From the NCBI GenBank assembly GCA_963422435.1, contig OY729511.1, forward strand, positions 244,208-308,207: a stretch of DNA of 64,000 bases, given 5' to 3'. A program made the position numbers and the translations under genes. Source of the stretch: Candidatus Binatia bacterium (GTDB lineage: Bacteria > Desulfobacterota > Binatia > Bin18). Shown one piece after another: positions 22,744 through 62,200 of this stretch. How positions within the stretch are numbered: position 1 is the first letter of the stretch; each line of letters begins with the position of its first letter. Below the pieces are notes generated by a model. It saw nothing but the letters and a program-made list of their open reading frames with translations, had not been told where the DNA came from and ran no database searches.

Positions 22744-22768
22744 GCCTGTCTTGAGCGGAGTCGAAAGG
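22744..22768 (+). repeat. Mini-element copy, intergenic (25-bp variant)
   Basis: gcctgtcttgagcggagtcgaaagg; its end runs into the purine-rich RBS region of the next gene. Confidence 0.75.
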
Positions 22769-22777
22769 AGGGAGTCG

Positions 22778-24232
22778 ATGTCAGCACACCAGACAGCCGA
22801 GCACATTCATTCACAATTGAGCCATCCGGTTATTGACTCAGACGGTCACTGGATCGAGTTTGAGCCCGCGGCCATGGACTATTTGCACGAGGTCGCGGGA
22901 GAGCGCGTAGTTGAGCGCTACAGCCAGGTTGCCAACCAGTTCGGCAATAGGAAATGGGCAGGCCTCTCGGAAGAGGAACGCCGCGACCGGCGGATGCTCC
23001 AGCCGGCCTGGTGGGGGGTGCCGACCAAGAATACGCGTGACCGTGCGACGGCCATGCTGCCCAAGCTGCTGTACGAACGCCTGGATGAGCTGGGCATCGA
23101 CTTTGGGGTGATCTACCCGACCGGAGGAGCGCTGTTTGCCCCGTTTCTACGCGATGACGAAATCCGCCGGGCGGCCTGTCGTGCGTTTAATATGTATACA
23201 GCCGACCAGTTCAAGGGCCTGCAAGACCGCCTGACTCCCGCCGCGGTGGTGCCGATGTTTACCCCGGAGGAGGCGATTGAAGAGTTGGAGTTCATTAAGA
23301 GCAAAGGCTTTAAGGTGGCCATGCTGTCCAGCCTGATCCGGCGTCAGGTTCCGGCGGTGGCGCGTAAAGCCCCCGAGGCCGGCCGCTATGCAATCTGGCA
23401 CGATACCCTGGGTATAGACAGCGCGCATGATTATGACCCGGTCTGGGCGAAATGCCTCGAAGTGGGGATCCCACCCAGCTTTCACTCGGCCTCGTCAGGC
23501 ATTGGGATGCGGGCCTCGATTTCCAATTTTGTGTACAACCACATCGGCCATTTTGCCCAGGCCGGAGAGGCGGTGTGTAAATCCATCTTCATGAACGGCG
23601 TGACGCGGCGTTTCCCGGAACTGCGCTTTGCCTTTTTGGAAGGCGGCGTGGGGTGGGCCTGCGGCCTGTATAGCGACCTCATCGGGCACTGGAAAATTCG
23701 CAACCCCAAGGCCCTGGATAATGTGAATCCCGCCAATCTGAACCAGGAAATGCTGGTCAATTTGTTCCAGAAATATGGCTCGCCCGCAGCGGTGGAAAAG
23801 CTGGGGCAGAAAGCGACTCAGGCCCATCTCGGCCTGCTCACCAAGGAGCCGGAAAAACTGGACGACTTCGCGCCCTGCGGGATTGAGCGCGCCGAAGACA
23901 TCCGCGACCTGTTCGTGCCGAATTTCTACTTTGGCTGCGAGGCCGACGACCCGCTGAACGCCTGGGCCTTCAACACCACCGTCAATCCGTATGGGGCCAA
24001 GATCAACGCCCTGTTTGGTTCGGACATCGGCCACTTCGATGTGCCGGACATGGCCGGGGGGTTGCCCGAGGCGTATGAAAACGTTGAGGACGGGGTGATG
24101 ACGGACGGTCATTTCAGGGATTTTGTGTTCGCAAATCCCGTCCGCTTCTGGAGCGCCGTCAACCCGGACTTCTTTGCGGGAACGGTGGTGGAGTCACAGG
24201 CGCGGGCGCTGGTGGCGGAGGGGGATGCTTAG
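22778..24232 (+). CDS. Amidohydrolase family protein (Amidohydro_2)
   Basis: IDSDGH, RRFPELRFAFLEGG, FYFGCEADD, GSDIGHFD. Confidence 0.92.
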   Translation: MSAHQTAEHIHSQLSHPVIDSDGHWIEFEPAAMDYLHEVAGERVVERYSQVANQFGNRKWAGLSEEERRDRRMLQPAWWGVPTKNTRDRATAMLPKLLYERLDELGIDFGVIYPTGGALFAPFLRDDEIRRAACRAFNMYTADQFKGLQDRLTPAAVVPMFTPEEAIEELEFIKSKGFKVAMLSSLIRRQVPAVARKAPEAGRYAIWHDTLGIDSAHDYDPVWAKCLEVGIPPSFHSASSGIGMRASISNFVYNHIGHFAQAGEAVCKSIFMNGVTRRFPELRFAFLEGGVGWACGLYSDLIGHWKIRNPKALDNVNPANLNQEMLVNLFQKYGSPAAVEKLGQKATQAHLGLLTKEPEKLDDFAPCGIERAEDIRDLFVPNFYFGCEADDPLNAWAFNTTVNPYGAKINALFGSDIGHFDVPDMAGGLPEAYENVEDGVMTDGHFRDFVFANPVRFWSAVNPDFFAGTVVESQARALVAEGDA

Positions 24233-24613
24233 CTACAACACCAGTCCGGCTCACCCGCGGCGTGGCCGTGGCGCTCGGCCCGGAGCTGACGCATACCGTC
24301 CAGCATATGCTGCCGGTCAATGGGTTGGGCGAGTTCATTCTGAAACTCCTGTCTGAAACTCCTGTCTGAAACTCCTGTCTGAAACTCCTGTCTGAAACTC
24401 CTGGTAGAGCCGCATGATATTGGGCAGCATCCGCTCGGGCTCACGCCAGCCGGCGTAGATGTCGGGATCCAATTGCCGACATGCCCCTGGAAGGCCAGGG
24501 GCGTGACATCACTTACACCCAGTTCACCGTTACGCCTGGATATGGGCCCAGGCTTTCGGAGCGCCCTCCTCAATCCCCGTCCGCCAGCCTGCGGGAGTGA
24601 TAGAGTCATGCAT
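24229..24613 (-). pseudogene. MBL-fold hydrolase pseudogene (multiple deletions, frameshifts, VNTR)
   Basis: Fragments in shifting frames: MHDSITPAGWRTGIEE...WAHIQA / NGELGVS-DVTPLAFQGHVGNWI / YAGWREPERMLPNIMRLYQEFQ. The HxHxDH core is absent. Confidence 0.62.
24339..24403. repeat. Perfect tandem repeat, 13 bp x 5
   Basis: (tctgaaactcctg)5 read directly. Confidence 0.97.
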
Positions 24614-24627
24614 AGGACTGCCCGCGT

Positions 24628-25728
24628 TTAGAGGTTGAATAAGCGGGCGGCGTTCTCACTTAATATCTTTTTCTTCAGTCCGTCCGACAGATCAGGCCGC
24701 TCATAGAGGGCTTTAACTGAATCCGGGCACATGCAGTCCCAGTGCGAGTAGTCCGAAGCATAGATGAGGCGCTCTTCCCCGATCAGTTGGGCCACGAACG
24801 GAATGGTCTTTTCTTCCGGCTCGACCGCGAAAAAGCAGTGCTCGCTCGCAATCCAGGCCTCAGGGCTGCGTTGCTGCCAGGGCATTTGCTGCGGCAGCAG
24901 CTCATAGTGCTCGTGGAGCCGATCCATCATCCACGGGACCCAGCCGGCGCCGGCTTCCATAAAGGCCACCTTCAGCTTCGGGAAGCGCTCCAAAATTCCC
25001 CCGGAGGCAAACGAGGCGACGGCCAGCATGGTGTCAAGCGAATAGAAGGCATGCTTGAACACGTAGCGATCAAAGCGATCAACACCCGCGGAGTTGGTTG
25101 AGATGATATGCGCACAAATGGGGACGCCCAGGCCCTGGGCTTCTTCCCAAATCGGGTCGAACTCGGCTTCGTGCAAGAGCTTGCCGCCGAAATTCGTCAG
25201 GACCTGGACCCCGACCATGCCAAGTTGTTCGACCGCCCGTCTGATTTCGACCCGAGCCGCCTCAGGGTCCTGCATGGGAATCATGGCGATGCCTTTGAGG
25301 CGGTCAGCATAGGGTTTGCAGTATTCAGCCAGCCAGTTGTTATACGCAACCGAGACCGCCATACCCAGGCCAGGATCTTCAATGGACGCTGCGGCACCGA
25401 GCCCGATAAAGGTCCCGAACAGGACGGCGATGTCGATCCCTTCGAGATCCATATCGGGGATACGCTTGTGCGGGTCCTGCATCCCCGCACGGTCCCAACC
25501 CCATTGGTGGGCGGGTTTCTTGGGCTCAGGCCACATGCCGAGTTGGCCGTAGAAGTCACGCCGGCTGGGCCACATTTTGCCCTCAACCACCAGATGCTTG
25601 CGACCATCCGGGTAGCTCACCCAACAGGGTGCGTCCTTATGATAGCGCTCGGGCAATAACTCAACCCAGTTGACAGCCTTCTCATCGACATGTCCATCGG
25701 CATCAATGACGGTATAGTCAGGTCTCAT
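24628..25728 (-). CDS. Amidohydrolase family protein (Amidohydro_2)
   Basis: IDADGH, DMDLEGID, ERFPKLKVAFMEAG, ASDYSHWD. Confidence 0.92.
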   Translation of the reverse strand: MRPDYTVIDADGHVDEKAVNWVELLPERYHKDAPCWVSYPDGRKHLVVEGKMWPSRRDFYGQLGMWPEPKKPAHQWGWDRAGMQDPHKRIPDMDLEGIDIAVLFGTFIGLGAAASIEDPGLGMAVSVAYNNWLAEYCKPYADRLKGIAMIPMQDPEAARVEIRRAVEQLGMVGVQVLTNFGGKLLHEAEFDPIWEEAQGLGVPICAHIISTNSAGVDRFDRYVFKHAFYSLDTMLAVASFASGGILERFPKLKVAFMEAGAGWVPWMMDRLHEHYELLPQQMPWQQRSPEAWIASEHCFFAVEPEEKTIPFVAQLIGEERLIYASDYSHWDCMCPDSVKALYERPDLSDGLKKKILSENAARLFNL

Positions 25729-25764
25729 GTTTCCCTCCTATGTCTTTTTCTTTCCACCTGCTCG

Positions 25765-27948: not shown

Positions 27949-28146
27949 AACGGTACGGTTACCCCTCCTGGTCAGTCGTGTCCGCGCCTCGTCATAAGGA
28001 ACAGGGTGAACGGGCCTGAAAAGTACGAAATACTAGCACACCCGGGGCCGCTCGGGCAGGCGGCAGCGGACCGTGGTCTTGAGGGGTTGCTTTCACACAG
28101 GTGAGGCATTAGTTATTGTGCACCTCGCAGACGAAAAGGGGACAGC

Positions 28147-29049: not shown

Positions 29050-29177
29050 GCCCTATTCCTGTCAGCAACCGTCTGTCGCAGATCCCCCGCCCCGGTGGGC
29101 TTCCTCATCCCTTTTGACGTATCCCATAGCCCTTTCTTGCCGCGAGTCTGATACAATATCCACAGGGAGGGCGGCGT

Positions 29178-30833: not shown

Positions 30834-30868
30834 AAAATCAAGCTGCACGGAAAGAGAGGAGAGAACAC

Positions 30869-31522: not shown

Positions 31523-31550
31523 ACCCGCCCGATTTCCCTACCACAGCAAT

Positions 31551-31582
31551 AAAAAAGGCCCTACTTGTGTAGGGCCTTTTTT
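31551..31582. terminator. Bidirectional intrinsic terminator
   Basis: aaaaaaggccctac-ttgt-gtagggcctttttt between the convergent npdG and groEL. Confidence 0.92.
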
Positions 31583-31606
31583 GATGAGGACTCGGTATAG
31601 GGGAGA

Positions 31607-33289
<1,683 letters not shown>

Positions 33290-33302
33290 CTAATATCCCG
33301 GA

Positions 33303-33706: not shown

Positions 33707-33716
33707 CCGTCAGCAC

Positions 33717-35560: not shown

Positions 35561-35566
35561 GATGCT

Positions 35567-46812: not shown

Positions 46813-48234
46813 TCACCCATCTAGGAATCCGTGAACAGGAGATGCCTGCCTGCGCTCAAGCGCGCCGAAAATTGCGGCCCGGGCACTATGATAATCGGCC
46901 GGCGATGCAATCGGCCTGTTGGCGGAATGCGCGGCCACCCCACGCAACCGTCCTTCGTGGTAGCGCCGCTTAAAGTCGGTAAACTTGAGCCCATGGGCAG
47001 TGGATATCACAACGACCCGTTCGTGTGACCGGAGCTGCCCGCTACGCGCCAGTTTCAGCAGGACGGCGAGCGCCACCCCGGTGTGCGGACAGTTGAACAG
47101 GCCGGTCAAGTCCGCCAGTGCCGACGCTTCGGCCAGCTCTTCTTCGCTGGCCTGCTCAACAATGCTATCGAAGGTCTGGAGGACCCGAATGGCTTTCTGC
47201 ACACTGACCGGGTTCCCGATCTGAATGGCTGACGCCAGGGTTTTTTTGGCTTTGACTGGGCGATATTTTTCAAAGCCGGTGATAAAACTCTTGTATAATG
47301 GATTGGCGCGTTCGGCCTGGGCACAGACGAGACGGGGCAGGCGGTCAATCAGCCCAAGTTCCTGCATGAGCAGGAATCCTCGTCCGATTGCCGTGACGTT
47401 GCCCAGATTCCCGCCAGGGACGATCACCACATCGGGGACTTCCCAGTCAAACTGCTGAACAATCTCAATCGCAATGGTCTTCTGCCCCTCAAGCCGCAGA
47501 CTGTTCATCGAATTGGCCAGATAGATGTTTTCTTTTGTACACAGCTCGCGCACAACCCGCATACAGCCGTCAAAATCGGTATCGAGCGACAAGGTCAGCG
47601 CCCCGTTTGCCATGGGCTGAATGAGTTGGGCCGTAGACACCCGATTACGGGGCAGAATCACAATAGCCGGGATGCCGGCCGCAGCGCAGTAGGCGGCCAG
47701 GGCGGCTGACGTATCGCCGGTTGAGGCGCACGCAACTGCGGGAATGGACACGCCGTCGGCAATCATCTGCTTCACCATGGAGACGAGCACGGTCATGCCC
47801 AGGTCCTTGAATGACCCGGTATGGGAGTTGCCACACTGTTTGACCCACAGATCGTCAAGACCGATGTGGCGTCCGAGTCGCTCGGCCCAGAACAGATTGG
47901 TGCCGCCCTCATAGGTGGAAACAATGTTCGCGTCGTCAATAGTCGGACACACCATTTCTTTCTTGCCCCACACCCCACTGCCATAGGGGTAGAGTGTCCG
48001 CCGATAGCGCTCGTCAAACAAATGTCGCCATTCTTGGGGCGTTCGCGTCTTGAGCGCGGCGATATCGTGCTGGACATCTAATAGCCTGCCGCAGGTCGGG
48101 CAGTAATACAGGATCTCGTTGAGCGGGTGTTCACCGGGGCAGCCCGCCGCACAGCCGAACCAGGCCCGAAACGGAGACGGGTTCGGGGCCGTCAGCGGAA
48201 GAGCAGGAACGTCTGTCATCGCGCCGTGTGTCAT
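46813..48234 (-). CDS. thrC: Threonine synthase
   Basis: [34 protein letters not shown]. Confidence 0.95.
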
Positions 48235-48273
48235 ACCGGTCTCTGACCGCCTCTTGCCATCCGGGCCGTTGCG

Positions 48274-49593
48274 TTAGCCAAGACTCTCCTCAATGCGGAC
48301 ATACACGGACTTGCCATACACGATAGGCAACCGATCGACTAATGTCATCGCCGTCTTCAAATTCCGTTCAGGTGCGGCATGCGTCCGCATGACCAGGGGC
48401 ACGGTATTATCGCCTTCGCTCCGCCCGCGCTGAATCACCGAGGCAATGCTGATGTCCTGGTCGCCTAAAATCCCGCTGATCTGGGTCAGCACCCCAGGAC
48501 GGTCAACGGCCATGAAACGCAGATAATACTCGCTTACCAGCTCATCCATGGGCCGGACCGCGGCCGGCTTCAGCTCCGTCCAGGCACAGCCCAGCGGTGG
48601 CTGGGGCTGTTGCTGCTTCGTCTGCGCCCGCGCGCTCTCAACCACGTCAGACAAGACTGCCACCGCGGTCGGCAAACTGCCCGCTCCCTGTCCGAATTGG
48701 AGGGACGAGCCGAGGGCTTCGCCTTGCGTAAAGATGGCATTATACGCGCCGCCCACACCTGCCAGCAGACTGTCCAGCGGGATCATGGTCGGATGGACCC
48801 GGGCTTCCAGCACACCGGACTCTTCCTTGGCAATCGCCAACAGCTTGAGCGCATAGCCGAACTCGCGCGCAAAGGCGATATCGATCTGATCGAGTTGCCG
48901 AATCCCTTCGGTGTAGACGGCATCGACCGGCACCCGCACGCCAAAGGCGAGCATAATGAGCAGCGTCAGCTTCTGAGCGGCGTCAATGCCATCGACATCC
49001 ATACGGGGGTCGGCTTCCGCCAAGCCCAACTCCTGGGCGCGGTGCAGGACGGGCGTAAACTCGGCGCCGTCCTCACTCATCCTCGCCAGGATGTAATTAC
49101 AGGTGCCGTTCACAATCCCGAACAGCGCCTTGTTACGGTCGGCGACAAAGCCTTCCCGCAGCGTCCGAATAACCGGAATGCCGCCGGCCACGCTGGCCTC
49201 AAACCCCAAGCGCACCCCCTGCGCTTCCGCCGCGGCAAACACCTCGTCGCCGTGGAGGGCCAGCAGGGCTTTGTTGGCCGTCACCACGGCTTTGCCCCGC
49301 GCCATCGCTTCCAGAACCAGAGCCCGAGCGGGGTCGGTTCCGCCAATGAGTTCCAGAACAATATCGACCTCGGCATCATGCACGACGCTCCACGGGTCGG
49401 CCGATACACGCACACCGGGGAGCGGCGGATGCGGCTTTGCGGCGATGCTCCGACTCGCAACGTGGACGAGTTGCAGGGGAACTCCTATTTTTCGCGCAAA
49501 CGCATCGCGCTGCCGGTCCAGGAGGTGGACCACGCCGGAACCAACCGTCCCCAGGCCAATGAGACCAAGCTTGACTCCCTCCCTCGCCATCAT
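48274..49593 (-). CDS. hom: Homoserine dehydrogenase with ACT domain
   Basis: [32 protein letters not shown]. Confidence 0.96.
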
Positions 49594-50852
49594 ACCGCTC
49601 GAAGCTTTTTCCCCGCCGGCCCGGCCGGTCCTGCGCCTGTCCTGAGCGGAGTCGAAGGGCCCAGTCGAGGGGCCGGAGCACTGACGCTGCCAAAGGCTCT
49701 ACGGATACCGCGGACCGCCTGTCGGGTCCGATGCTCATTCTCGATCAATGCAAAGCGAACGTAGTCTTCCCCATACGGCCCAAAACCGATTCCCGGGGAC
49801 ACCGCGACCTTGGCTTCCGTCAGGAGAAATTCCGCAAAAGCCATGGAGCCCATGACCCGTAGCGGCTCCGGGATGTGCGCCCAGACAAACATCGTGCCTT
49901 TGGGTTTGGGGATAGGCCAGCCCACCCGCTCCAGGCCGTCAATCAGGACATCGCGGCGAAGACGATAGCGCTGGCGCATGTCTTCCACGCAGTCCTGGGG
50001 GCCGTTCAAGGCCTGAATCGCGGCGATTTGAATGGGCTGAAAAATACCGTAGTCAAAATAGCTTTTGAGCCGGCCCAGGGCCATGATCGCCTCGGGATTA
50101 CCGCAGGCAAAGCCCACCCGCCAGCCCGGCATATCGTAGGATTTCGACAGGGTAAAGAACTCGACCCCAATCTCTTTTGCGCCCGGCACCTGAAGAAAGC
50201 TCGGCGGCGTATAGCCGTCAAAAAAGAGGTCGGCATAGGCAAAGTCGTGAATGACAAACAATTTATGCTCACGGGCAAATTCCACGACGCGCGTAAAAAA
50301 CTCAAGGTCCACAACGGCCGTTGTCGGATTATGCGGGAAGCACAGCAGCAAGACCTTGGGCCGCGGCCAGCACTGCTGAACCGTTTCCTGAAGGGAGGTA
50401 AAGAAATCTTCCCCCGGTCGGAGCGGAACGACCCGCAAATCGGCATTGGCCATCACAATCGAATACTGATGGATGGGATAGGTCGGACTCGGGCAGATGG
50501 CCACGTCACCCGGACCGAGAATCGACAGCGCCAAATGGGATAAGCCTTCTTTCGAGCCGATGGTCACAATGGACTCGGACTCGGGATCAAGCTCTACCTC
50601 AAAGCGGCGTTTATACCACTCACAGATCGCCAGGCGCAGTTTGTACAGCCCGCGGGAGGTTGAATAGCGATGATTCTGCGGCTTGGTCGCGGCCTCAACC
50701 AGCTTGTCCACCACATGCTGCGGAGAGGGATGGTCGGGATTGCCCATCCCAAAATCAATAATATCCTCCCCCGCCCAGCGGGCCTCCATTTTCATCGTGT
50801 CCAGGGTGGCAAACAGATAGGGCGGAAGCCGTTTAATACGTGGGAATTCCAT
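49590..50852 (-). CDS. Class I/II PLP aminotransferase (AlaC-like)
   Basis: [35 protein letters not shown]. Confidence 0.9.
49624..49671 (+). repeat. Two nested copies of the 24-bp mini-element
   Basis: gccggtcctgc[gcctgtcctgagcggagtcgaagg]gcccagtcgaggg; inner copy 49635-49658. Confidence 0.78.
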
Positions 50853-50954
50853 GCTGCCTCACCTCTGAGGAGACAGGCGGTTCAGCCCATCTCCGGCAGG
50901 GTCTCCATTACTGCTAAGGATATAGGGGATTTACTGAAACCGGTCAAACCTCTG

Positions 50955-51282
50955 GGGTTTGAGATTGCTATCTCCGTTCCTCCTGGTTGATTATCTCTCC
51001 TCCGTGGGGAAACGTTCTTCTGTCCACTTTCTGTGGCGTCCTACATTACGTGCCCCGGACGATGAGTTCGTTCTTGAGTTGACAGTGGCAGCCGGATGTG
51101 AAGCCATCGTCACTCACAACATCCGCGATTTTGCTCAAGCACAGCGCTTTGTAGCGGAGAAAATGTCCACGCTGCTCACCGAGGAATACCTGGAGGAGCG
51201 CGCCCGACGGGCAGACCCCGCTGCGGTTGATCGAATTTTAGCGCAGGCGCCGGATGTGCCTCCGGTCCCGGGGGATGAATGA
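50955..51282 (+). pseudogene. Degraded PIN-domain toxin fused to an antitoxin C-terminus
   Basis: FEIAISVP (other frame), then FLWRPTLRAPDDEFVLEL...IVTHNIRDF (PIN) joined to VAEKMSTLLTEEYLEERARR...VPPVPGDE (antitoxin tail). Confidence 0.75.
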
Positions 51283-51301
51283 GTCCCGTCATAGATCAAT
51301 C

Positions 51302-51420
51302 TCTGCGTCCGGCTGCCCCGCGGCCAGGGCATTCAGCCAGGCCAAACACAAATCACGCGAGCGGGTGCGGCCAGAGGTGGCGGTTTCCTGGCGTTCGACA
51401 ATCGGGAAGGTCGAATAGAT
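51302..51420 (-). repeat. 119-bp direct repeat of the RM gene 3' end (partner 52854-52972)
   Basis: 111/119 identical by manual comparison; encodes alternative tail IYSTFPIVERQETATSGRTRSRDLCLAWLNALAAGQPDAEIDL* (stop at 51289). Confidence 0.95.
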
Positions 51421-51428
51421 AGGGCGCG

Positions 51429-52211
51429 TCACGCGGCTAAACGGTCGAGCTTCCGTTGAAGGTCGTCTCTCGCGTCAAGCGACGCGACCGCGGTATCGGC
51501 GATATTGGTCAATCGGGCAAGGTCAAGCCGGGGGATCTCCTGCTGATTTTCAAACACGATGACGGATTCAAAAGACAGCTCTTTAAGCAGGAAATGTGAG
51601 AGCATGATTGTTGTCAGTCGCGCCTTGTCGCGGTTCGGAACGCCATACAGGAACACCGGTATATCTTGCTTGCCCCGGAGACGGTAATCCACGGGATAGC
51701 TGTCGCCGTCCGGGATTTCAGGAGGAACATAGTCCGCTTCAATTTTATCCGTACCAACTATGGTGACAAGCAACGCCTTGAGGTCTTCATAAAATGTCGA
51801 GGCCACATGCGCCCGGCTCAGCATAGTCAAGTCGTACACCTTGGTTAACGCTTGGCCGAAGTTGAACAGGGCGTCGGCAAGGTGCTCCGGCGCGACCGCA
51901 ACGGAAAACACTCCATCCCGCTCCTCAATACCGGCCTCTCGCACCACCTGCTCCCGCAGAGCGGCGCGTGTGCCGGTGAAGAGTGCGTCCACATCGTGCT
52001 CATAGCTGATGTGCATCAACGTGTGACCCCGGTCACTCAAGATCACCCCGCCGGTTCGGGTCTCGGAGAGATAGACCGGGTAACGGTCTCCGTCAGGAAA
52101 AGTGAAAGGGGTGTCCAGCATGAGCACGCCATCGTCACGTGTGTGGACGCGGACCTGTGCGCACAGACCTTCACACAGCGTCTTTTCCAGCGACGTGCGA
52201 TCAAGCACCAT
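51429..52211 (-). CDS. DUF1828 (+DUF1829-like) domain protein
   Basis: TPFTFPDGD...ILSDRGHTL DUF1828 signature; C-terminal STFYED...YPVDY segment. Confidence 0.82.
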   Translation of the reverse strand: MVLDRTSLEKTLCEGLCAQVRVHTRDDGVLMLDTPFTFPDGDRYPVYLSETRTGGVILSDRGHTLMHISYEHDVDALFTGTRAALREQVVREAGIEERDGVFSVAVAPEHLADALFNFGQALTKVYDLTMLSRAHVASTFYEDLKALLVTIVGTDKIEADYVPPEIPDGDSYPVDYRLRGKQDIPVFLYGVPNRDKARLTTIMLSHFLLKELSFESVIVFENQQEIPRLDLARLTNIADTAVASLDARDDLQRKLDRLAA

Positions 52212-52665
52212 TGAACAATTGTCCTTGTTCTTCTGGAACGGGGAGCTCCTGGACACCACAATCCTTAATCAGACAGACAAGCGCACCCTCAAGGTTCTGA
52301 TACCGATCCGTCTTCTCGGCATAGCTGTCCACCCTCTTTCCCGCCGCTATGGCTTCGGCTGTGGCGCGATGAATATGACAGTCGTAACGAATATCCCCAT
52401 GCCGATGGCTGGAACCGTTGTAACGAATAAGACTAAGAGACTTCTCGCCCTCTCGTATCAAGGCGGGACCACACGAGAAGTCCTTCTCGTCGTTCATGTT
52501 CTGTCTTTGGTACAGCCGGTATCTGACGCCATCATTAGTTTTTGCGTCATAATTCCGTTGCCTGTGGCCGGGCTTTTCAACCCAGCGAGCGGCAGGATTC
52601 GTGACCCGTTTCAGACTGGAGCGAAGCTTGTCCAGGTCATCGTTTGAAAAACGTTGGTCAGTCAC
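52201..52665 (-). CDS. Hypothetical His-rich protein (DUF6978/DUF6516-like)
   Basis: LIRYNGSSHRH...CHIH motif; stop overlaps the DUF1828 start. Confidence 0.72.
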   Translation of the reverse strand: MTDQRFSNDDLDKLRSSLKRVTNPAARWVEKPGHRQRNYDAKTNDGVRYRLYQRQNMNDEKDFSCGPALIREGEKSLSLIRYNGSSHRHGDIRYDCHIHRATAEAIAAGKRVDSYAEKTDRYQNLEGALVCLIKDCGVQELPVPEEQGQLFNGA

Positions 52666-52840
52666 GACTGAATCTCTACGATTTTCAGATTCCCAAGATC
52701 AAACACCACATAGAGCAGAAATCCGCTCTCGGATTAATTTCTTTCCGGCGGTATGCGGCCAGACCGTCTTGTTTTTCTGACATATGAATTTTCTCCCGAA
52801 ATACAGGGGAACCAAAGTGAGTTCGCAATGCACCGCCCCC

Positions 52841-55800
52841 TCACCCCGCCACTTCTGCGTCCGGCTGCCCCGCGGCCAGGGCATTCAGCCAGGCCAAACA
52901 CAAGGCGCGCGAGCGGGGGCGGCCATACCTCGCGGTTTCCTGGCGTTCGACAATCGGGAAGGTCGAATAGATGTAGCGAATGTCGTCGCGGTCGGTGATG
53001 CCGTACAGATGAAAGAACACCGCGTCGAGCTTGGCCCGTAGGCGCAAGCGGCGTTCCTCGTCCCACACGAACGGCGGCTTGACATTGCCCAACGCATCCA
53101 CATGGTCCAAGTCACGGGCGAAGGGGGCCATGTCGTGGGCGGTGTAGGTGAGTTCCAGCACGGCGGCGCGGACAATCTCCCCGGCAGTCTTGGGGCCGAA
53201 ACGGACTGCTTGAAAGCGGTCGAGTGGCACGACCGGCATCTGTTCCAGAGCGTACCACGTGAAATGCGTTGCCGGTACTTTCTGCCGCGCTACGTAGTCG
53301 AACGGCGCAGCATTCAGATTTGCGACAATCAGGCTTGCCTGTAACGCCGTATCATCAGCGCTATCAAGGAACGGGAGCACGGGAAGCGTATTCCCCGCAC
53401 CGGCACACGGGATGATGGCCGCAATCATCGTCCGCATATTGGTAGCTGCGGTAATGTCCTTGAACGCAATGACCCACTGGCTCGGCCAGGACCAGCGCTC
53501 CGCGGCGTCTTTCACGTAATAGCGCGGCTTCGGACTGCGACTAAAATCGGCCTTTTCTGAGTTGGGAATAGCTTCCTGCTGACCGGGACGGAAAAGGTTG
53601 TCCTGGTTTAAGATTGTATCCGCAGCACGATGGTCAAAGGCTTGCACCATCGTGCCCTCGTACAGCGGCAGCCACTCCCCGCTCGGACTACCAAAGCGAT
53701 GACCGCCAATCGGCCACGCGCCCTCCCCTTCTTCCAACTCTTTCCGCGTGCGGAACAAGCCGGAGTCGTTCGCCATGTGAAACATGGTCGAATATCGCAC
53801 CGGCCACGCCCGGACTTCCTCGTCACCGGAACGATCCACCAACACCGGCAGGCGGCCGTAGATAGCGGTCGTCAGCCTGGCGTCCCGCCGGGTACGGAAG
53901 ATGGGCGCGGTGCCGGTGTTGGGATTCACGCGGGCAAAGTCGGCCGCGGTCAGCGGAAAGCAGCGCTCCGGGTCGTTGAGTTCGGAGACATCCTGTAGAA
54001 AAAACGCGCAGTGGGCCGACTCACTGAACGAGGCCGGGCTGGCCACAAACGCACAGAACTTGAAGCGGCTATCCACATCCGGGAAGAACGGCGGCGCGTT
54101 GAACTTGGTTCTGCGATTCTCAAAGTCGTACAACGCCCGCAACCGCCCTTCCGTTGCGACACTCTGAAAAAATTCCGCAGCGGTTTTGTCCGACGCAATG
54201 CCGGACGGCACCAGCAGGCCGATCATGCCCGTCGGCTTGACCAGCGTCATGGCCCGCTCAACAAACAATGAGTATAGATTCACATCGCCCCGCGACAACA
54301 AAGGATAATCGCCACAGGTGCGCGCCATGCGTGTAGTCGTGGCCGCCCGTTCGTTCGCCTTGGCAAAATCACGGCTGAGCGGGTCGCCGTCCGTTTCCAG
54401 CGCGGCAATCAGGCGCTTGCGGTCGGACGCTCGCTGAGCATGGGCAATCTCGGGCCGGCGGGCCGCGAACCATTCGACCTGTTGCAGCTTGATACGGTCC
54501 CACGGCGGGTTGCCGACCACCGCATCAAAACCGCCGTCTGGCTCCACATTTTTCATATTTGTCCACACCCCAGGGAATGCAGCCTGCCAGTTCAGAAAGC
54601 GCTCTTCGACCATGAGCGTGCACCCCCGTTCCAACAGCCCGGCGAACCGTTCACCGTCGGGTGTCGCAGTCGAGACGGCGCACCGCCCCTGCGCAATGTC
54701 GAGCGGGTCGCCCAAACGGCCCTCGAAAAAGGCGTGAAGCGCGGCAGTGTCGGCGCGGTCCTGCACGTCCAGCCAGTCGAAGGCGTGCAGCAGGGCCAGA
54801 AACGCGTCGAGCGGCGCAGTCAGAGCTTCCACTTGGGCAAAGGTGTGTGCGGACCGGTGGGCCTCGGCAATCTCGGCGTCTGTCAGATGCTCCACCACCT
54901 GCATGGCGTCAGCCGCATCCGCGGCCCGGTTTACTGGCTCGTGGATGAACAGCCCATGACCACCGGCACTCATCTTCTCTATGCCCTGGCGCGCCCAGCA
55001 GCCGAACAGACTGTTGCCACAGCGCAAATGGTGATCCAGAAAGCTCAGCGGTGCCCCCACGGTGAACGTGTGCAGCCAGAGCGAGACCTTGGCCAGTTCA
55101 ACGGCCATCGGGTTTTTGTCTACGCCATAGACGCAACGCTTGAGCACCATGCGCCGAATGATATGCCGGTCGTCAAGCTGTTCCGCGTCCATGGTCCAGC
55201 CGCGCTCGCCGGCATTCTTCAGGATAGTGGTGCGCATAGCGTCAATCCGCTCGGTCAACGGCGAAACATAGCCGGCAACCGTGGCCTGAGCCTCGGCAAG
55301 CGCGGCAATCACGCTGTCGGCCAGATAGTCCACCAGACTGACCAGAAAATGCCCGGAGCCCATAGCCGGGTCGCAGATTTTCAGTTCCAACAGCCGCTCA
55401 GCAGGATCGTGCCGCTTGAGGTCGTGCCGCTTGAATCCGCCGCCCAGCCGACTCCGGGCGTACTTGGCCACGGTGGCAGTGAACGTGTCCAGACGGGCCT
55501 GCACCAAGGGCTCGACCGTTTCCCGGATAATTACACCCACCAGGTCGTCCGGGGTGTAATAGCTGCCCGAGCCCTTGCGGGCGAACACATTGGGCCGCAC
55601 GCTGATTTCGCCGCCAGCGCGCACAACTTCGTATTCGAGCAGGCGTTCATAAATCGAGCCGAGTTGCTGCACGCTCAGGTCACGGTAGTTGATATAGCGC
55701 CGACCCTCTTCCGTCTGCTCAAACGACAGCGCGTCAATGACATCGGCCATGACCGCATCGCCCAACCGAACAGCCGCCAGCAACGGCGTGCGCTGCCGGT

Positions 55801-56935
55801 CGAACAGACCGCCGTTATAGGGCGGCAGGCCAATCGATGTGTCGCCGTGGTCAATCGCCCGGCACAGATCGTCGATGACCGCCCAGTAACGGGCCGCGCG
55901 GGCCGAGAAAGTATCGCCCGCGTCCTTGCGACGCCCGACATCACGCCGCACCTTGTCGCGCAGGCCGTAGTCGTCGTAGCGATGGTCCCGGACCGGCAGC
56001 AGATCACGGTCTTCGGCATACAGGAGAAACAACAGTCGGTAGAGCAGAATCAAGGCCGCGTCACGCACCTCGGCCAACGGCGCGTCCGGGGCAGCTTCGG
56101 CAATGGCCCGCGCCAGGCTGGGAAAGACCTGTTTGAAAACCAGTTCGGACAGGTCAGCGGCAACGCGTTCTTCGTAGAGCTGGCCCTCATCAAGAACGCG
56201 CTGGTGGAGCGTGCGCGAGTCCGCGCTGGCCGGACCGGACAGAAAGGCATTGCGACGAAAAAAGAGTACGAACAGCGTGAGGCAGTGCCGGCGCTCGGCC
56301 TCGGACAGCGCGAACAGGCCGTCGTTATGGCCGGGCAGACCCAGGATCGGCGCCAAATCAAGCTCGAAGAACTGTTCCGACACGGACCGCGCGCCAGCCC
56401 AATACAGCCGCCACTTGACTCCATTAGTCAGTACCCCCCAGCGCAGCGTACCGTTCGTCAGGTCGTCCACCCGTCGCAGGTAGCGCAACATCTGAGTCGA
56501 AGGCGCGGTCTCCTCACCCTGCCGCTCGGAGCGCCGGTCAAGCGGGCGTTGCCAACGCTTGGACTCGACCACGGCCAAGCCGTATTCATACCGTTTCCAT
56601 TCCTGCCGGTAGCGGTTGGCACGATCCTTGGTCGCTTCGTCTGCAAAGAGCAGACCGTCCGGCACATCGTCCCGCCCGCGTGACGAGAGATTCTGTTGGC
56701 GCAGGCTGGCCGTCCAGCCCAAGGCTCCGAGTACCGGCCAGATCAGATCGTCCTCGGTCTGGCTCTCGTTGGGGGTCTGGCCGGTCGGGAAGCGGTCGAA
56801 TATATTCCGCAGCGCCCGTTCACATTCGTCCAGCGCAGCGTCGTCAACGGCCTGCCAGTCAGATAACTGCGCGATGGATTCCGTCAGAAAATCGCGGGCA
56901 AACAGACTGCCCTGGACTGCGCTCTCAATGTTCAC
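52841..56935 (-). CDS. Type IIG fused restriction endonuclease / N6-adenine methyltransferase (Eco57I-like)
   Basis: N-terminal PD...ESK nuclease motif, GSYYTP, DPAMGSGHFL, GNPPW, C-terminal specificity region. Confidence 0.92.
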   Translation of the reverse strand: MNIESAVQGSLFARDFLTESIAQLSDWQAVDDAALDECERALRNIFDRFPTGQTPNESQTEDDLIWPVLGALGWTASLRQQNLSSRGRDDVPDGLLFADEATKDRANRYRQEWKRYEYGLAVVESKRWQRPLDRRSERQGEETAPSTQMLRYLRRVDDLTNGTLRWGVLTNGVKWRLYWAGARSVSEQFFELDLAPILGLPGHNDGLFALSEAERRHCLTLFVLFFRRNAFLSGPASADSRTLHQRVLDEGQLYEERVAADLSELVFKQVFPSLARAIAEAAPDAPLAEVRDAALILLYRLLFLLYAEDRDLLPVRDHRYDDYGLRDKVRRDVGRRKDAGDTFSARAARYWAVIDDLCRAIDHGDTSIGLPPYNGGLFDRQRTPLLAAVRLGDAVMADVIDALSFEQTEEGRRYINYRDLSVQQLGSIYERLLEYEVVRAGGEISVRPNVFARKGSGSYYTPDDLVGVIIRETVEPLVQARLDTFTATVAKYARSRLGGGFKRHDLKRHDPAERLLELKICDPAMGSGHFLVSLVDYLADSVIAALAEAQATVAGYVSPLTERIDAMRTTILKNAGERGWTMDAEQLDDRHIIRRMVLKRCVYGVDKNPMAVELAKVSLWLHTFTVGAPLSFLDHHLRCGNSLFGCWARQGIEKMSAGGHGLFIHEPVNRAADAADAMQVVEHLTDAEIAEAHRSAHTFAQVEALTAPLDAFLALLHAFDWLDVQDRADTAALHAFFEGRLGDPLDIAQGRCAVSTATPDGERFAGLLERGCTLMVEERFLNWQAAFPGVWTNMKNVEPDGGFDAVVGNPPWDRIKLQQVEWFAARRPEIAHAQRASDRKRLIAALETDGDPLSRDFAKANERAATTTRMARTCGDYPLLSRGDVNLYSLFVERAMTLVKPTGMIGLLVPSGIASDKTAAEFFQSVATEGRLRALYDFENRRTKFNAPPFFPDVDSRFKFCAFVASPASFSESAHCAFFLQDVSELNDPERCFPLTAADFARVNPNTGTAPIFRTRRDARLTTAIYGRLPVLVDRSGDEEVRAWPVRYSTMFHMANDSGLFRTRKELEEGEGAWPIGGHRFGSPSGEWLPLYEGTMVQAFDHRAADTILNQDNLFRPGQQEAIPNSEKADFSRSPKPRYYVKDAAERWSWPSQWVIAFKDITAATNMRTMIAAIIPCAGAGNTLPVLPFLDSADDTALQASLIVANLNAAPFDYVARQKVPATHFTWYALEQMPVVPLDRFQAVRFGPKTAGEIVRAAVLELTYTAHDMAPFARDLDHVDALGNVKPPFVWDEERRLRLRAKLDAVFFHLYGITDRDDIRYIYSTFPIVERQETARYGRPRSRALCLAWLNALAAGQPDAEVAG

Positions 56936-57066
56936 GTGCCCAGATTTCTTGTGTTGTTATTGATGTGGGAGGAACCGCAGAGGAAGTCAGAAACCCGCTG
57001 AAACCCAGAGTGCTCTCTTCTGGAACACTCTCCGTCTCTGCACCCAGCCCAGTGCCGCAAACAGCG

Positions 57067-59271
57067 CTACCCCACCCGGGCCAACTCCAGCCGGCCGGCC
57101 CAGCGATCTTCGAGAACGGCGCGCAGCCGGCGGGATTCGGCTGTCGTCAGGTTAGGGTCGCGTTCGAGCCAGGCCAGGGCTTCGTCTCGCGCGGTTTCCA
57201 GCAGTTTGCTGTCGCGCACGATATTGGCCACCCGGAAGTCGGGCAGGCCGGACTGGCGCGTGCCCAGAAACTCGCCCGGCCCGCGAAACGCCAGGTCGGC
57301 TTCGGCAATTTTGAAGCCGTCGTCGGTTTCCGTCATGACCTGAAGACGCCGCAGGGACTCGTCGCCCGGCGCGTACTGGGCCAGCAGCAGACACAATGAG
57401 GCCGCCTGCCCGCGCCCGACTCGTCCGCGCAACTGGTGCAACTGGGCCAGGCCGAAGCGTTCGGCATGCTCAATCACCATGACCGTCGCGTTGGGCACGT
57501 CAATGCCAACCTCAATGACGGTGGTCGAAACGAGCAGGTGATGCTCGCCGGCCTTGAAGCGCTGCATGACCGCGTCTTTTTCGTCGCCCTTCATGCGGCC
57601 GTGGACGAGCCCGACCGAATATTTGGCAAAGAAAGTCTGGGCCAGCTCTTTGGCCATGGAGGTCGCGGCCTTCAGGTCGGACTTCTCGGATTCCTCAACC
57701 AACGGATAGACCACATAGGCTTGATGCCCCCGTTCGAGCTGGTCTTTAACCAGATGATATGCCTTTTTCCGCTCGCCTTCATGGAACACATGGGTCGTAA
57801 TCGGCTTGCGGCCCGGCGGGCGTTCGTCCAGGGCTGAGACATCCAGGTCGCCGTACAGGGTCAGGGCCAGGGTGCGGGGGATGGGGGTGGCGGTCAGCAG
57901 CAGAATATCTGGATTCGCGCCCCGTTTCCGCAAGGCGGCGCGCTGCATCACCCCAAAGCGATGCTGCTCATCCACAATGGCCAAGCCCAGATGCTGAAAG
58001 CGCACGCCCTCCTGGATCAGGGCGTGCGTGCCAACCGCCATCTCGACCTCGCCCCGTTCCAGGAGCCCGTAGATCTCTTGTTTCCGTTTTGGGCGGATTT
58101 CTCCGGTCAGCAGCGTCATGGACAGGCCGAGCTGCTCGGCCAGCGGCGTCAGCGTCCGGTAGTGCTGCTCGGCCAGGAGTTCCGTCGGAGCCATGAAGGC
58201 CACCTGGTAGCCGCTATCGAGGGCGGCCAGGGCCGCAAAGAAAGCCACGATGGTCTTGCCCGAGCCAACATCTCCCTGGACCAGGCGGTTCATCGGGTGG
58301 GGAGCGGCCATATCCAGAAAAATCGCCTCGACCACTCGCTCTTGGGCCGCGGTCAATTGGAACGGCAGGATACCGTACACCTGCCGGACGAGCGGCCCCG
58401 GCACAATGGACAACCCCTCTTCCCGGACGGTATTGCGCCGGCGCAGCGCCATCCCCAGTTGCAAATAAAAGAGTTCGTCGAACACGACCGCCCGATGCGC
58501 CTGAGAGGTAGCCGCATTGAGTTCAGCAACCTCAGCATCGAGCGAAGGGCAGTGCAACTGCCGCAGGGCGTGACTGAGCGGCATCAGGTGCAGGCGCTCA
58601 CAAATGTCCTGCGGCACGCCGTTGGAGACCTGATCGACATAGAGGTCAACGGCACCCTGCACGACCCGCCGCATGGCAGCCACCGTCATTTCGGTGGTCT
58701 TATTATAAATGGGCAAGACGCGGGCGGTCTCGTCGTCTTCCTCCAGCGGCTCCATGTCCGGGTGGATCATCCACTTGCCACCCTTCATGCCCTTCTCAAC
58801 CTTGCCGTACAGCAGGACCCGCTGACCAAGCTGATAGCGCTGCTGAAAATAGCGATGCTGGTGATACCACAGCAGAAAGAGAAAACCGGTTTCGTCTCGG
58901 ACAACGGCTTCAAGCACCCAGCGACGCCGACGGGCCAGAAAGCGACGTTCCATCCGGGCGATTTGGCCGCTGACCGCCGTCTCATCTCCCATCTGAAGAT
59001 GACAGATTTGCTTGATTTCGCGCCGGTCCTGATAGCGGAAGGGAATATGGTAGAGCAGGTCTTCGACCGTTGCTATGCCCAGCCGCGCCAACTGCTCGGC
59101 CCGACGCGGGCCCACGCCTTTGACATACTGCACCGAATTTTTGAGCGCCGGTCCTGAGCCCGGTCGAAGGGGCGGCTGAGACGAACGAAAAGACCGCACC
59201 GGAGCAGCCTTCCCCTCTCCCCTCTCCCCTAGCCCCTGTCCCCTGTCCACTTTTGACTTTCCGCCAGCCAT
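57067..59271 (-). CDS. recG: ATP-dependent DNA helicase RecG
   Basis: VKGVGP, QGDVGSGKT, DEQHRFG, TATPIPRT, QLRGRVGRG, RGPGE. Confidence 0.97.
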   Translation of the reverse strand: MAGGKSKVDRGQGLGERGEGKAAPVRSFRSSQPPLRPGSGPALKNSVQYVKGVGPRRAEQLARLGIATVEDLLYHIPFRYQDRREIKQICHLQMGDETAVSGQIARMERRFLARRRRWVLEAVVRDETGFLFLLWYHQHRYFQQRYQLGQRVLLYGKVEKGMKGGKWMIHPDMEPLEEDDETARVLPIYNKTTEMTVAAMRRVVQGAVDLYVDQVSNGVPQDICERLHLMPLSHALRQLHCPSLDAEVAELNAATSQAHRAVVFDELFYLQLGMALRRRNTVREEGLSIVPGPLVRQVYGILPFQLTAAQERVVEAIFLDMAAPHPMNRLVQGDVGSGKTIVAFFAALAALDSGYQVAFMAPTELLAEQHYRTLTPLAEQLGLSMTLLTGEIRPKRKQEIYGLLERGEVEMAVGTHALIQEGVRFQHLGLAIVDEQHRFGVMQRAALRKRGANPDILLLTATPIPRTLALTLYGDLDVSALDERPPGRKPITTHVFHEGERKKAYHLVKDQLERGHQAYVVYPLVEESEKSDLKAATSMAKELAQTFFAKYSVGLVHGRMKGDEKDAVMQRFKAGEHHLLVSTTVIEVGIDVPNATVMVIEHAERFGLAQLHQLRGRVGRGQAASLCLLLAQYAPGDESLRRLQVMTETDDGFKIAEADLAFRGPGEFLGTRQSGLPDFRVANIVRDSKLLETARDEALAWLERDPNLTTAESRRLRAVLEDRWAGRLELARVG
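59147..59170 (+). repeat. 24-bp mini-element copy in the recG 5' region
   Basis: gccggtcctgagcccggtcgaagg, read as PLRPGSGP on the coding strand. Confidence 0.75.
59212..59260. repeat. Degenerate heptamer tandem repeat (7 x 7 bp)
   Basis: cccctct cccctct cccctag cccctgt cccctgt ccacttt tgacttt. Confidence 0.75.
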
Positions 59272-59278
59272 ACCCCTC

Positions 59279-62200
59279 TTATCCGTGATATTCCTGAAGC
59301 GGGCACACGCCGAGCAGGCCCCGCTTGAGGCGGGTAATGCCTTCGACCGCTGCTTCCGCTCCCGCCAGCGTCGTAAAATACGGCACCTGACACTCCAGGG
59401 AACTCCGCCGAATCGAAAAGGAATCCTTGATAGACTGAGCCCCCTCGGTCGTATTAATGACCAGATCGATCGAGCCCGCCTGGAGGGCATCCACAATATG
59501 CGGGGAACCTTCCAGAACTTTATTCACCATCTCAACAGACAGCCCGTGCTGCCGGAGAAATGCACAGGTGCCGCGCGTCGCCACCATAGAGAAGCCATTC
59601 TCCGCCAACTGTTTGGCAATAGGCAGGGTGGCAGGTTTATCGCGGTCACGAACACTCAGGAAGACCTTGCCCGTTTCCGGCAAGATATTCCCCGCCGCAA
59701 ATTGCGCTTTGACAAAAGCCATGGCAAAGGACTGGTCCACCCCCATGACTTCGCCGGTTGACTTCATTTCCGGTCCCAGGATGGTATCCACGCCGGGGAA
59801 TTTAATAAACGGAAAAACCGCTTCTTTGACGTTGACATGAGCGGGAATGACTTCCTGGGTAAAACCCAGTTCGTCCAGGGTTTTCCCCGCCATGACGCGC
59901 GCGGCTATCTTTGCCAGCGGAATGCCGATCGCCTTACTCACAAACGGCACGGTCCGTGAGGCGCGCGGATTCACCTCGATCAGAAAAACCTGCTGATCCT
60001 GAACGGCGAACTGGATGTTCATCAGGCCAACCACGCCCAACTCTCGGGCCAACAGAGTGGTTTGCCGCCGAATCTCAGCCTGCACCGCGGCCGACAGGGT
60101 GCGCGGCGGGAGCGAACACGCACTGTCACCGGAGTGGACACCGGCGAGTTCGATATGTTCCATAATGCCGCCGATCACCACAGCCCGGCCGTCGCTCAGA
60201 GCGTCGACATCAACCTCGGTGGCGTCATCCAGGAATTGATCGATCAGGACCGGCCGCTCCGCGGACACGGACACGGCCTCGCGCATATAGCGTCGCAGGC
60301 TTGCCTCGTCATACACCAGCTCCATGGCCCGTCCGCCCAGAACATAGGAGGGACGGACCAGCACCGGATAGGCAATGTCCTGGGCGATAACCACGGCTTC
60401 CTCAACCGACCGGGCGGTGCCATTGGCAGGCTGTCGCAGGTCGAGCCGTTCGAGCATCCGCTTAAACCGTTCGCGGTCCTCGGCCCGGTCAATGGCATCT
60501 GGCGGCGTGCCCAGAATTGGCACCCCGGCCCGTTCGAGCGGCACGGCCAGCTTGAGCGGTGTCTGCCCGCCGAACTGAACAATGACCCCATACGGCTGTT
60601 CGCGCTGTACGATACTCAGCACATCTTCCAGCGTCAGCGGCTCAAAATACAGCTTGTCAGACGTGTCATAATCTGTGCTGACGGTCTCGGGGTTACAGTT
60701 CACCATAATGGCTTCAAAGCCGTCTTCTTTGAGCGCAAAGGCGGCGTGCACGCAGCAATAGTCGAACTCGATGCCCTGGCCGATCCGATTCGGCCCGCCA
60801 CCCAGAATGATCACCTTCTTGCGATCAGTCGGCTGGGACTCGTCTTCTCCTTCGACTTGGCTCAGGACAGGCCCTTCGTAGGTTGAGTATAAATAGGGCG
60901 TGTGGGCCACAAATTCGGCGGCGCAGGTGTCTACTGTTTTATAGACCGGAATCACGCCCAGACGTTCGCGTTCGGCCCGGACGGCATCCTCGCTGACACC
61001 GAGCAGACGGCCAAGATGGACGTCAGAAAAGCCCATCTGTTTCGCCCGGCGCAACAGGCCGGGCGGTAATACCGCCCCGGTGGTCTCATCCGTCCCCCCC
61101 GCCCGCTGGACCTCTTTTTCGCACTCTACGATGTGCCCGATATTATCGAGAAACCACGGATCGATTTTTGAGAGCTGATAGAGTTCATCCACACTCATGC
61201 CCAGGCGGAGCGCTTCCGCCACAAACCACAACCGCTGGGCGTTTGGGGTTTGCAGGGACGCGCGCAGGGCGTCCAGCGGCGTCTCGGCGGGTAGAGATTC
61301 AAACCCGTAGCTGTCGATTTCGAGCGAACGCAGGGCTTTCTGAAGCGCCTCCTTGAAGGTCCGACCTATGGACATGGCCTCACCGACCGATTTCATCTGC
61401 GGTCCGAGCAAATCCCGCGCTTGGGGAAATTTGTCAAAAGTAAAACGCGGCATCTTGACCACTACATAGTCGATCGTGGGTTCAAAAGAGGCTGGTGTCT
61501 CGCGCGTAATATCATTCGGAATTTCGTCCAGGGTATAGCCCACAGCCAGTTTTGCGGCAATTTTGGCAATCGGAAAGCCGGTGGCTTTACTCGCCAGAGC
61601 CGACGAGCGGGACACCCGGGGGTTCATTTCAATCACGACCAGCCGACCGGTCTCCGGGTGGACGGCGAACTGGATATTGGACCCGCCCGTGTCCACCCCA
61701 ATCTCGCGGATGATGCGCAGGGCCGCATCCCGCATGAGTTGGTATTCCTTATCGGTCAGGGTCTGGGCGGGCGCGACCGTAATGGAATCACCGGTATGGA
61801 CGCCGAGCGGGTCGAAATTTTCGATGGAACAGATGATGACCACATTGTCCTGGGTGTCACGCATCACTTCCAGTTCAAACTCTTTCCAGCCGGCGATTGA
61901 CTCCTCAATCAGAACCTCATGGGTGGGAGAGGCCTGCAAGCCCCACTCGACAATGGTCTGAAACTCCTGCGGGGTCTGGACGATCCCGCCCCCGGCCCCC
62001 CCAAGAGTGCGGGACGGTCGGATAATCAACGGCAGGCCCAAGGTCTCGCGCAAGGCATAGGCTTCCTCAAGAGAGTGGATATAGCCGCTCCGGGGCAGGT
62101 CCAGCCCGATGCGCTCCATGGCCGCCTTGAACAAGTCTCGGTCTTCGGCTTTCTTGATGGCCGGTAGCTTGGCCCCGATGAGTTCCACTCCGTAGCGGTC

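Follow-up and report, generated by a model that had tools for sequence, protein, structure and literature searches.

The 64,000-nucleotide (nt) stretch of a Candidatus Binatia bacterium genome analysed here (GenBank assembly GCA_963422435.1, contig OY729511.1, positions 244,208 to 308,207; hereafter the window) contains several copies of a dispersed repeat of 23 or 24 nt. We read these copies as members of a family of miniature, non-autonomous insertional repeats with a precise unit that is tolerated in frame in essential genes, and we put the probability of this reading at roughly 60%. An original prediction, made from the letters of the window, had described a micro-element resembling repetitive extragenic palindromes (REPs) that is spread in trans and generates peptide insertions. 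This description is supported by the copy number, by empty sites in relatives and by in-frame units in intact genes. The micro-repeat is genuine, and it is active or recently active.

A precise unit repeated throughout the genome

The source genome (G000) is a single contig of 3.92 Mb with 58.6% G+C; G007 is its nearest relative, and the other G numbers stand for the congeners or further genomes of the phylum that were compared. In the window, the pattern GCCKGTCCTGAGCNNNGTCGAAGG matched at 22744 (plus strand, two mismatches) and, with no mismatch, at 49635 and 59147 (plus strand) and at 60849 (minus strand), whereas none of 100 dinucleotide-preserving shuffles was matched. The predicted motif is real and lies far above chance, with four full copies in the window and one older copy split by a newer one.

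A scan of the whole genome, proposed at the outset as a check, extended this result. The arms CCTGAGC and TCGAAGG, spaced by 1-16 nt, occur 76 times in G000, compared with 0-3 times in 30 shuffled-arm controls. The more specific pattern CCTGTCCTGAGC-N2-3-GTCGAAGG yielded 31, 51, 67 and 81 copies at 0, 1, 2 and 3 mismatches, respectively, and its reversed control yielded 0 matches at each of these settings. Two repeat families in G000 share the arms, and family 1 is the predicted element. Its consensus over 67 copies is RR-GCCTGTCCTGAGC-N2-3-GTCGAAGG-G, and the unit itself, R-GCCTGTCCTGAGC-N2-3-GTCGAAGG, measures 23 or 24 nt.

Empty sites and allele series in related genomes

Uninterrupted congener alleles, which the original prediction had proposed to look for, were found at every locus examined. 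Empty sites were identified for eight loci of G007 and for eight loci of G000 (the four window loci, GcvT, GatB, SecA and the Ald leader); at the loci of G000, the gain of filled over empty sites is exactly 24 nt, or 48 nt when units are nested.

The unit at 60849-60872 (minus strand, loop CAA) lies in frame in carB, which encodes the large subunit of carbamoyl-phosphate synthase, and reads PVLSQVEG. Among 28 genomes, this site is filled in five and empty in 23, the empty form being YSTYEG/EDES (slash, insertion point). G000, G007 and G012 carry a single unit, G014 carries two in tandem, and G006 has a 132-nt composite that includes a family-2 element. In the CarB-RecG spacer, 14 nt before the predicted start of RecG, there is a GCCGGT variant of the unit with loop CCG (59147-59170, plus strand, antisense to RecG). 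Its 24-mer is found just in G000 and G007 among 26 readable genomes; the other 24 read GAGC/GGCGG, and G041 carries an independent unit at another point of the spacer. Contigs of a near-identical strain (run X6) contain both units, with T,T replacing C,G at 59149-59150, in the flank to the left of the unit in the RecG leader. Yet another pair is seen here in G007, and these positions appear to vary freely. In contigs from two RNA runs, the RecG leader of a relative resembles the empty allele.

The tail of an aminotransferase open reading frame (ORF), for which anchors were found in 13 of 27 loci, provides a series of zero, one and two units. The distance between the anchors is 90-91 nt with no unit (G016, G043), 115 nt with one unit (allele GCCTGTCCTGAGCCAGGTCGAAGG; G012, G019, G001, G018) and 139 nt with two (G000, G007, G006), the second unit having been inserted after the CCTGAG of the first. 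This series explains the copy at 49624 that had been listed as split, and bears out that description. More specifically, an older, decayed outer unit is divided into a left half (GCCGGTCCTGCG, 49624-49635, plus strand, boundaries within 1-3 nt) and a right half (CCCAGTCGAGGGG, 49660-49672, plus strand), and an inner unit of exact consensus with loop GGA (49635-49658, plus strand) is nested in its loop.

The variant unit at 22744-22767 (plus strand, arms CTTGAGC ... GTCGAAAG) sits within the Shine-Dalgarno region, and the ATG at 22778 follows 10 nt downstream. The site is filled in G000, G007 and G043 and empty (CCAAGG/AGGGAG) in 17 congeners, and AAGG stands on both flanks of the unit. The empty allele indicates that the insertion took place inside the ribosome-binding site, which was rebuilt by the unit's own 3' end.

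Loci outside the window were compared in six genomes (G000, G007, G012, G019, G006 and G014). Here, the GcvT copy is present in G000 alone, the Ald-leader copy in G000 and G014 alone, the GatB copy in five genomes with an empty site in G019, and the nested 48-nt pair of SecA in two, G000 and G007. When 51 unit-bearing loci of G007 were mapped onto G000, 27 were shared, 8 lacked the unit, 1 was ambiguous and 15 had no orthologous flanks. At two of the eight loci lacking the unit (L291 and L284), the difference is exactly 24 nt, whereas the rest are composites of 68-177 nt; at one shared locus, G000 has an extra nested unit. The insertions specific to G000 relative to G007 are those in GcvT, in the Ald leader and this nested copy, and some insertions arose after G000 and its nearest relative had diverged.

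Loci disagree over which genomes have a copy in common, as G043 has the 22744 copy without the CarB copy and G012 the reverse. These conflicts suggest that, at least once, a copy was lost seamlessly or lineages exchanged alleles. A search for related loci with the CarB segment returned just distant taxa at 61-74% identity and was uninformative for empty sites. In G001, the CarB region and the 22744 and 49635 loci are duplicated near both contig ends (G001:C1:49801-50247 and 5103782-5104228), probably as an untrimmed circular overlap of the assembly.

Junctions and targets of insertion

The flanking direct repeats at nine resolved sites, determined by reading, measure 0, 0, 1, 2, 3, 3, 4, 4 and 6-8 nt. 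A k-mer test for a fixed target duplication across 67 copies found a 5-nt match in none and a 4-nt match in two. In 61 of 67 copies the unit is directly followed by G, and the three preceding bases are mostly purines. Some targets resemble part of the unit, including CGAAGG in CarB, AAGG at 22744, a TCCTGG-like sequence in GatB and at L284, and the loop of an existing unit in four instances; at L291 the junction identity is GCTTG. Nested pairs were found in the aminotransferase tail, in SecA, at G000 position 108278 and in GatB of G014.

Junctions of this kind raise the question of whether a dedicated enzyme is involved at all. Units could instead be copied by template switching during replication or repair, or by microhomology repair, with slippage giving rise to tandem and nested forms. 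The junction identities of 0-8 nt, which often match part of the unit (CarB, 22744, L291, GatB, L284), favour such an origin, as do the tandem arrays with a 24-nt period in CarB of G014 and in G198 and the six transposase and recombinase profiles left unmatched in G000 (for one of which, Y2_Tnp, the control was uninformative). However, the cleanest recent insertions (GcvT, Ald and RecG) gained a complete canonical unit at 0-1 nt of junction identity, which copying by microhomology does not predict, and we consider this origin quite improbable.

The array in G198 (L253, G198:C104:4562-4651) consists of at least four head-to-tail units with a 24-nt period, reads (GPVLSKVE)n in one frame, and shows that the unit can expand in tandem. 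A 32-kb segment of G000 (G000:C1:1447056-1479025) contains five units of family 1 and one copy of family 2, all on the minus strand. This cluster holds the two youngest insertions, in the Ald leader and GcvT, whose 24-mers are identical, and it may reflect local hopping.

Copies in coding sequence and in leaders

Genes were called with a crude finder of our own based on ORFs and codon usage, and protein identities were taken from Pfam. The original prediction had counted four window copies in coding sequence. This count is overstated, since the CarB copy alone is clearly intragenic; of the others, one falls in a C-terminal tail and two in 5' leaders. The carB gene (59279-62524, minus strand, 1081 aa) is intact, and its unit falls at about residue 552 of 1081, between the oligomerisation domain (423-507) and the second pre-ATP-grasp domain (568-679). 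The 49635 unit lies within the final 22 residues of the 420-aa class I/II aminotransferase ORF (49590-50852, minus strand), past the Pfam domain, which ends at residue 369. RecG (57067-59133, minus strand) comprises 688 aa from its predicted GTG start, and its RecG_wedge match begins at residue 2. The gene downstream of the 22744 unit encodes a 484-aa protein of the Amidohydro_2 family (22778-24232, plus strand). The peptides first quoted for the window copies, PVLSQVEG, PSTPLRTG (the antisense reading of the inner unit) and PLRPGSGP, are correct readings of their frames.

Across G000, 48 of the 81 copies are intergenic, 30 lie in predicted genes and 3 at gene edges. Noncoding DNA makes up 11.5% of the genome, so copies are strongly enriched between genes (binomial p ~1e-24). 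Genic copies comprise 15 in sense and 15 in antisense orientation. Their hosts, among them CarB, SecA, GatB, GcvT, two aminotransferases, a DEAD-box helicase, a class-I LysRS and a radical-SAM protein, are all full length with strong Pfam matches. An enrichment of frame-preserving copies in genes had been put forward as a further check, and it was found: 28 of 30 genic copies have the 24-nt form, compared with 30 of 48 intergenic ones (Fisher p = 0.003). Five of the six frames of the unit are essentially stop-free, and the sixth holds the TGA of CCTGAGC, always a stop. Taken together, the bias towards 24 nt, the stop-free frames and the intact hosts indicate that the unit is probably translated as an 8-residue insert and that insertions that were not tolerated were purged. 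At two 3' gene edges, the predicted gene terminates within a sense-oriented unit, where the TGA of CCTGAGC would provide the stop. The peptides 'SLSKGE', 'VRPELVEG' and 'FDKLRANG', which we take to be common in hypothetical proteins of metagenome bins, look like translations of the repeat super-family in question here. SecA of G000 (L012, G000:C1:3353121-3356849) is unusually long at 1242 aa; its P-loop domain is matched in two separate stretches, and the nested unit pair sits between them.

Fourteen intergenic copies are followed within 30 nt by a predicted start, 11 of them in sense orientation (binomial p = 0.057), and the 3' arm GAAGG(G/A) restores a Shine-Dalgarno sequence at the 22744 and Ald sites. 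In addition, the arms are highly uniform within one genome. These features would be in line with a functional cis-element under selection, for instance a protein-binding site or a hairpin that controls translation by masking the ribosome-binding site, and not with selfish DNA. We regard a role of this kind as very improbable, since presence differs between close species at every locus examined, copies in genes occur in both orientations, and orthologous copies drift (the GatB copy of G007 has 2 changes in 25 nt, and several copies in G000 are decayed). Furthermore, the units gave no Rfam match and no folding signal, and the bias towards starts can stem from a preference for purine-rich AGG/GG targets. 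The repeat is best read as selfish DNA, with possible co-option of some copies that restore a ribosome-binding site.

Hairpin structure of the unit

The unit had been predicted to form an imperfect hairpin with the stem CCUGAG/CGAAGG and tandem G.A pairs. Limited covariation speaks for this structure, while the predicted folding is no more stable than that of shuffled sequences, so the hairpin is only weakly supported. Among the 81 copies, the second pair is C-G in 76, U-A in 3, U-G in 1 and C-A in 1, and the first G.A pair is changed to G-C in 5. Other changes in the arms preserve pairing in roughly half of the cases. The variation of the arms is compatible with a hairpin and is no proof of one. 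The noncomplementary G.A positions are kept in 74 of 81 copies, which argues that units are copied from other copies and not made by intrastrand hairpin correction, and this counts against an origin through host repair.

In Rfam searches, the whole window yielded a tRNA alone at the gathering threshold, and no family was found at the units at E <=5 over 48000-62000. A match to Ysr141 inside recG was dismissed, scoring 33 bits against a cut-off of 196.

Distribution and the search for a mobilising enzyme

The family core is present in 22 of 24 sampled congeners, which hold 0-282 copies, compared with 0-1 in controls. When the phylum was sampled evenly, one copy or more turned up in 69 of 251 genomes, and 20 genomes from many families have at least eight, with a maximum of 261. 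The distribution across the phylum is patchy. Viral contigs of IMG/VR, with a G+C content of 37-74%, also contain exact matches to a pattern of 20 specified bases, in 54 stretches, where we estimate that fewer than one match is expected by chance. This occurrence in distant families and in viral contigs of such varied composition is a further point against copying by host repair.

The original prediction had reported no mobilising enzyme in the window. Profile searches extended this observation to the whole of G000, in which Y1_Tnp (PF01797), TnpB, IS110 DEDD, RVT_1 and Resolvase had no match; Y2_Tnp had none either, with an uninformative control. No gene flanked by units was found in G000 other than housekeeping genes. 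One unit-flanked ORF of 227 aa (G000 823918-824601) was set aside, as by eye it bears no resemblance to a transposase. When ORFs within 2.5 kb of a unit in the 54 viral loci were clustered, no family appeared in more than three loci.

The family could in principle consist of classical REP elements moved by a RAYT (Y1 HUH) transposase whose gene was recently lost from G000, leaving its copies as a decaying legacy. Y1_Tnp is common in the phylum, occurring in 175 of 251 genomes and in 16 of the 20 genomes with at least eight copies, and G000 contains a sister family with the same arms, an internal GTAGCG and frequent inverted doublets. Insertion without target duplication and seamless loss are, moreover, characteristic of the IS200/IS605 and RAYT class of enzymes. 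However, 16 of 20 (80%) represents no enrichment over the background of 70%, and no Y1_Tnp match was found in the copy-rich genomes G000, G013 (236 copies) and G280; for G175, also copy-rich, none was among the matches listed, from which its absence is deduced. The expectation that copies would flank an HUH or RAYT gene was not borne out in five relatives (G017, G023, G006, G024 and G015), whose Y1-like genes are unflanked by the unit. A decaying legacy is also at odds with the insertions of G000 that are missing in G007 (GcvT, the Ald leader and one nested copy). Lastly, family-1 copies are singletons, with 0 inverted doublets within 150 nt among 81 copies, and their consensus has no terminal GTAG or CGTC tag. 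We therefore consider movement by a lost RAYT unlikely.

A possible route of movement

The comparisons above show that new sites gain a whole unit whose ends are defined, with no target duplication of fixed length. The unit lands beside sequence that is G-rich or element-like, within Shine-Dalgarno regions and inside the loops of existing copies, giving rise to nested and tandem forms, and it can apparently also be lost or swapped between lineages. Within genes, just the tolerated insertions persist, namely 24-nt units in any of the five frames free of stops, where the unit is probably translated as an 8-residue insert. It is plausible, at somewhat less than even odds, that the unit moves as a folded single strand and that a trans-acting, structure-specific nuclease or strand-transferase recognises the imperfect hairpin. 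Such an enzyme would recognise the CCUGAG/CGAAGG stem with its tandem G.A pairs, would not be a Y1/RAYT transposase of G000, and may come from outside, for example from phages that also carry the unit. A broader proposal seems rather doubtful to us, namely that the unit spreads without any known class of transposase, by a new enzyme acting on G.A mini-hairpins or by host replication and repair, and that it is carried by phages and serves as a phylum-wide generator of 8-residue inserts and ribosome-binding sites.

Several observations weigh against this account. The junctions with 4-8 nt of identity to the end of the unit (CGAAGG in CarB, AAGG at 22744) also fit repair or template switching. 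Complementary flanks, as would accompany insertion into hairpin loops, gave no signal at offsets of up to 4; at offsets of up to 10, stems of at least 6 occur at 7 sites, compared with 2.4 +/- 1.6 at random sites. Given this weak complementarity, targeting of hairpin loops holds for the nested copies and one subset and not generally. By eye, no replichore strand bias is obvious in G000, whose skew is weak and asymmetric. RNA folding of the four window copies is no better than that of shuffles (z = +0.2 to +1.0), and the sole double compensatory change (C-G to U-A, in three copies) may come from a single lineage. Positions relative to genes depend on the crude gene finder described above. The searches turned up no mobilising enzyme, so the part of the account that concerns mechanism is one that we infer.

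Related repeats and neighbouring sequence

Family 2 (CCGTTCGT-CCTGAGC-GTAGCG..AGCGAAG-TCGAAGG) has a loop of 14-15 nt and 24 copies with exact arms in G000, for example, outside the window, at G000:C1:63431-63458, 172910-172937 and 210731-210758. By reading, and uncounted, many of its copies have an inverted partner (GCTCAGCACGAACGG) and form long REPIN-like hairpins. A third repeat, CCCTCTCCCC-loop-GGAGAGGG-CYRGGGTGAGGGG, was found in the window at 59200-59250 and in G000 at 2451853-2451869 and 3373848-3373864, and it often holds the 23-nt unit in its loop. Composites with this repeat, 68-177 nt in length, are present in G007 and absent from the orthologous sites of G000 (L260, L275, L272, L270 and L303). 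Within the 870-nt spacer before the 22744 unit, a stretch of about 130-190 nt (window positions ~22380-22575) has many matches in most congeners at 74-89% identity and looks like another dispersed element.

Comparison with known repeats and significance

The closest analogue of the family appears to be the small dispersed repeats (SDRs) of the Nostocaceae, which Elhai and colleagues reportedly described in 2008 as dispersed units of 21-27 nt with nesting, a predicted hairpin and no known mobiliser, their mobility being deduced from orthologous loci. The present family shares the dispersed small unit (23/24 nt), the orthologous empty sites (at 8 loci each of G000 and G007) and the nesting of elements within elements. 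It differs in belonging to another phylum, in its unrelated-looking sequence (SDRs were compared by description only) and in the large share of its copies that lie in frame inside conserved genes. The relevant excerpt of PMC5861425 reports insertion of SDR5 into the short palindrome HIP1 and states that SDRs were not found outside the Nostocaceae.

REP/REPIN-RAYT systems (Bertels & Rainey 2011, PMC3116915; Di Nocera et al. 2013, PMC3733652) are, in the sections of these papers drawn upon, based on short (20-40 bp) imperfect palindromes in high copy, mostly extragenic and in part genic, and intragenic REPs as well as REP classes without a dedicated transposase are described there (PMC3733652). 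The present family resembles them in unit size, in the number of its copies (81) and in their mostly extragenic, partly genic location, and its unit may likewise be an imperfect palindrome. Its stem is very weak, comprising just CCU/AGG and a G-C pair around conserved tandem G.A mismatches, with folding that does not improve on that of shuffles. It further differs from REP/RAYT systems in the terminal tag, the inverted pairs and the cognate Y1/RAYT profile match, all lacking as set out above.

Rickettsia palindromic elements measure about 100-150 bp and are not known outside Rickettsia. Like the units of the present family, which may also be palindromic, they lie in frame in protein-coding genes, whereas the unit studied here spans 24 nt and adds only 8 residues. 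In the section concerned of PMC3733652, they are described as selfish palindromes within functional protein genes. The same source, in that part, gives miniature inverted-repeat transposable elements (MITEs) as 70-300 bp long with terminal inverted repeats (PMC3733652). The present family likewise is non-autonomous, dispersed and polymorphic between relatives; its unit of 23-24 nt and its junction repeats of 0-8 nt set it apart from this class. MITEs typically generate a target duplication of fixed length.

In the main texts of the literature covered on REPIN/RAYT and in-frame palindromic elements, supplementary tables excepted, no description of the unit was found, and searches with motif strings returned primer coincidences alone. 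Both intragenic REPs and very small mobile repeats had been described before, and the novelty of the family is lower for that reason.

With its exact 24-nt gains, alleles of zero, one and two units, young insertions and a genome without matches to the usual transposase profiles, the family offers clean material on how the smallest repeats, including SDRs, CGTC-type REPs and RAYT-less REPs, move. The essential enzymes CarB, GatB, GcvT and SecA tolerate the same 8-residue insert. In automatic annotation, the units will inflate the number of 'hypothetical' peptide motifs and shift the starts and ends of genes. If the broader proposal of spread without any known class of transposase is true, the genus, whose genomes hold 0-282 copies each and whose insertions postdate the splits between species, would be a natural system in which to follow the movement of a RAYT-less micro-repeat.

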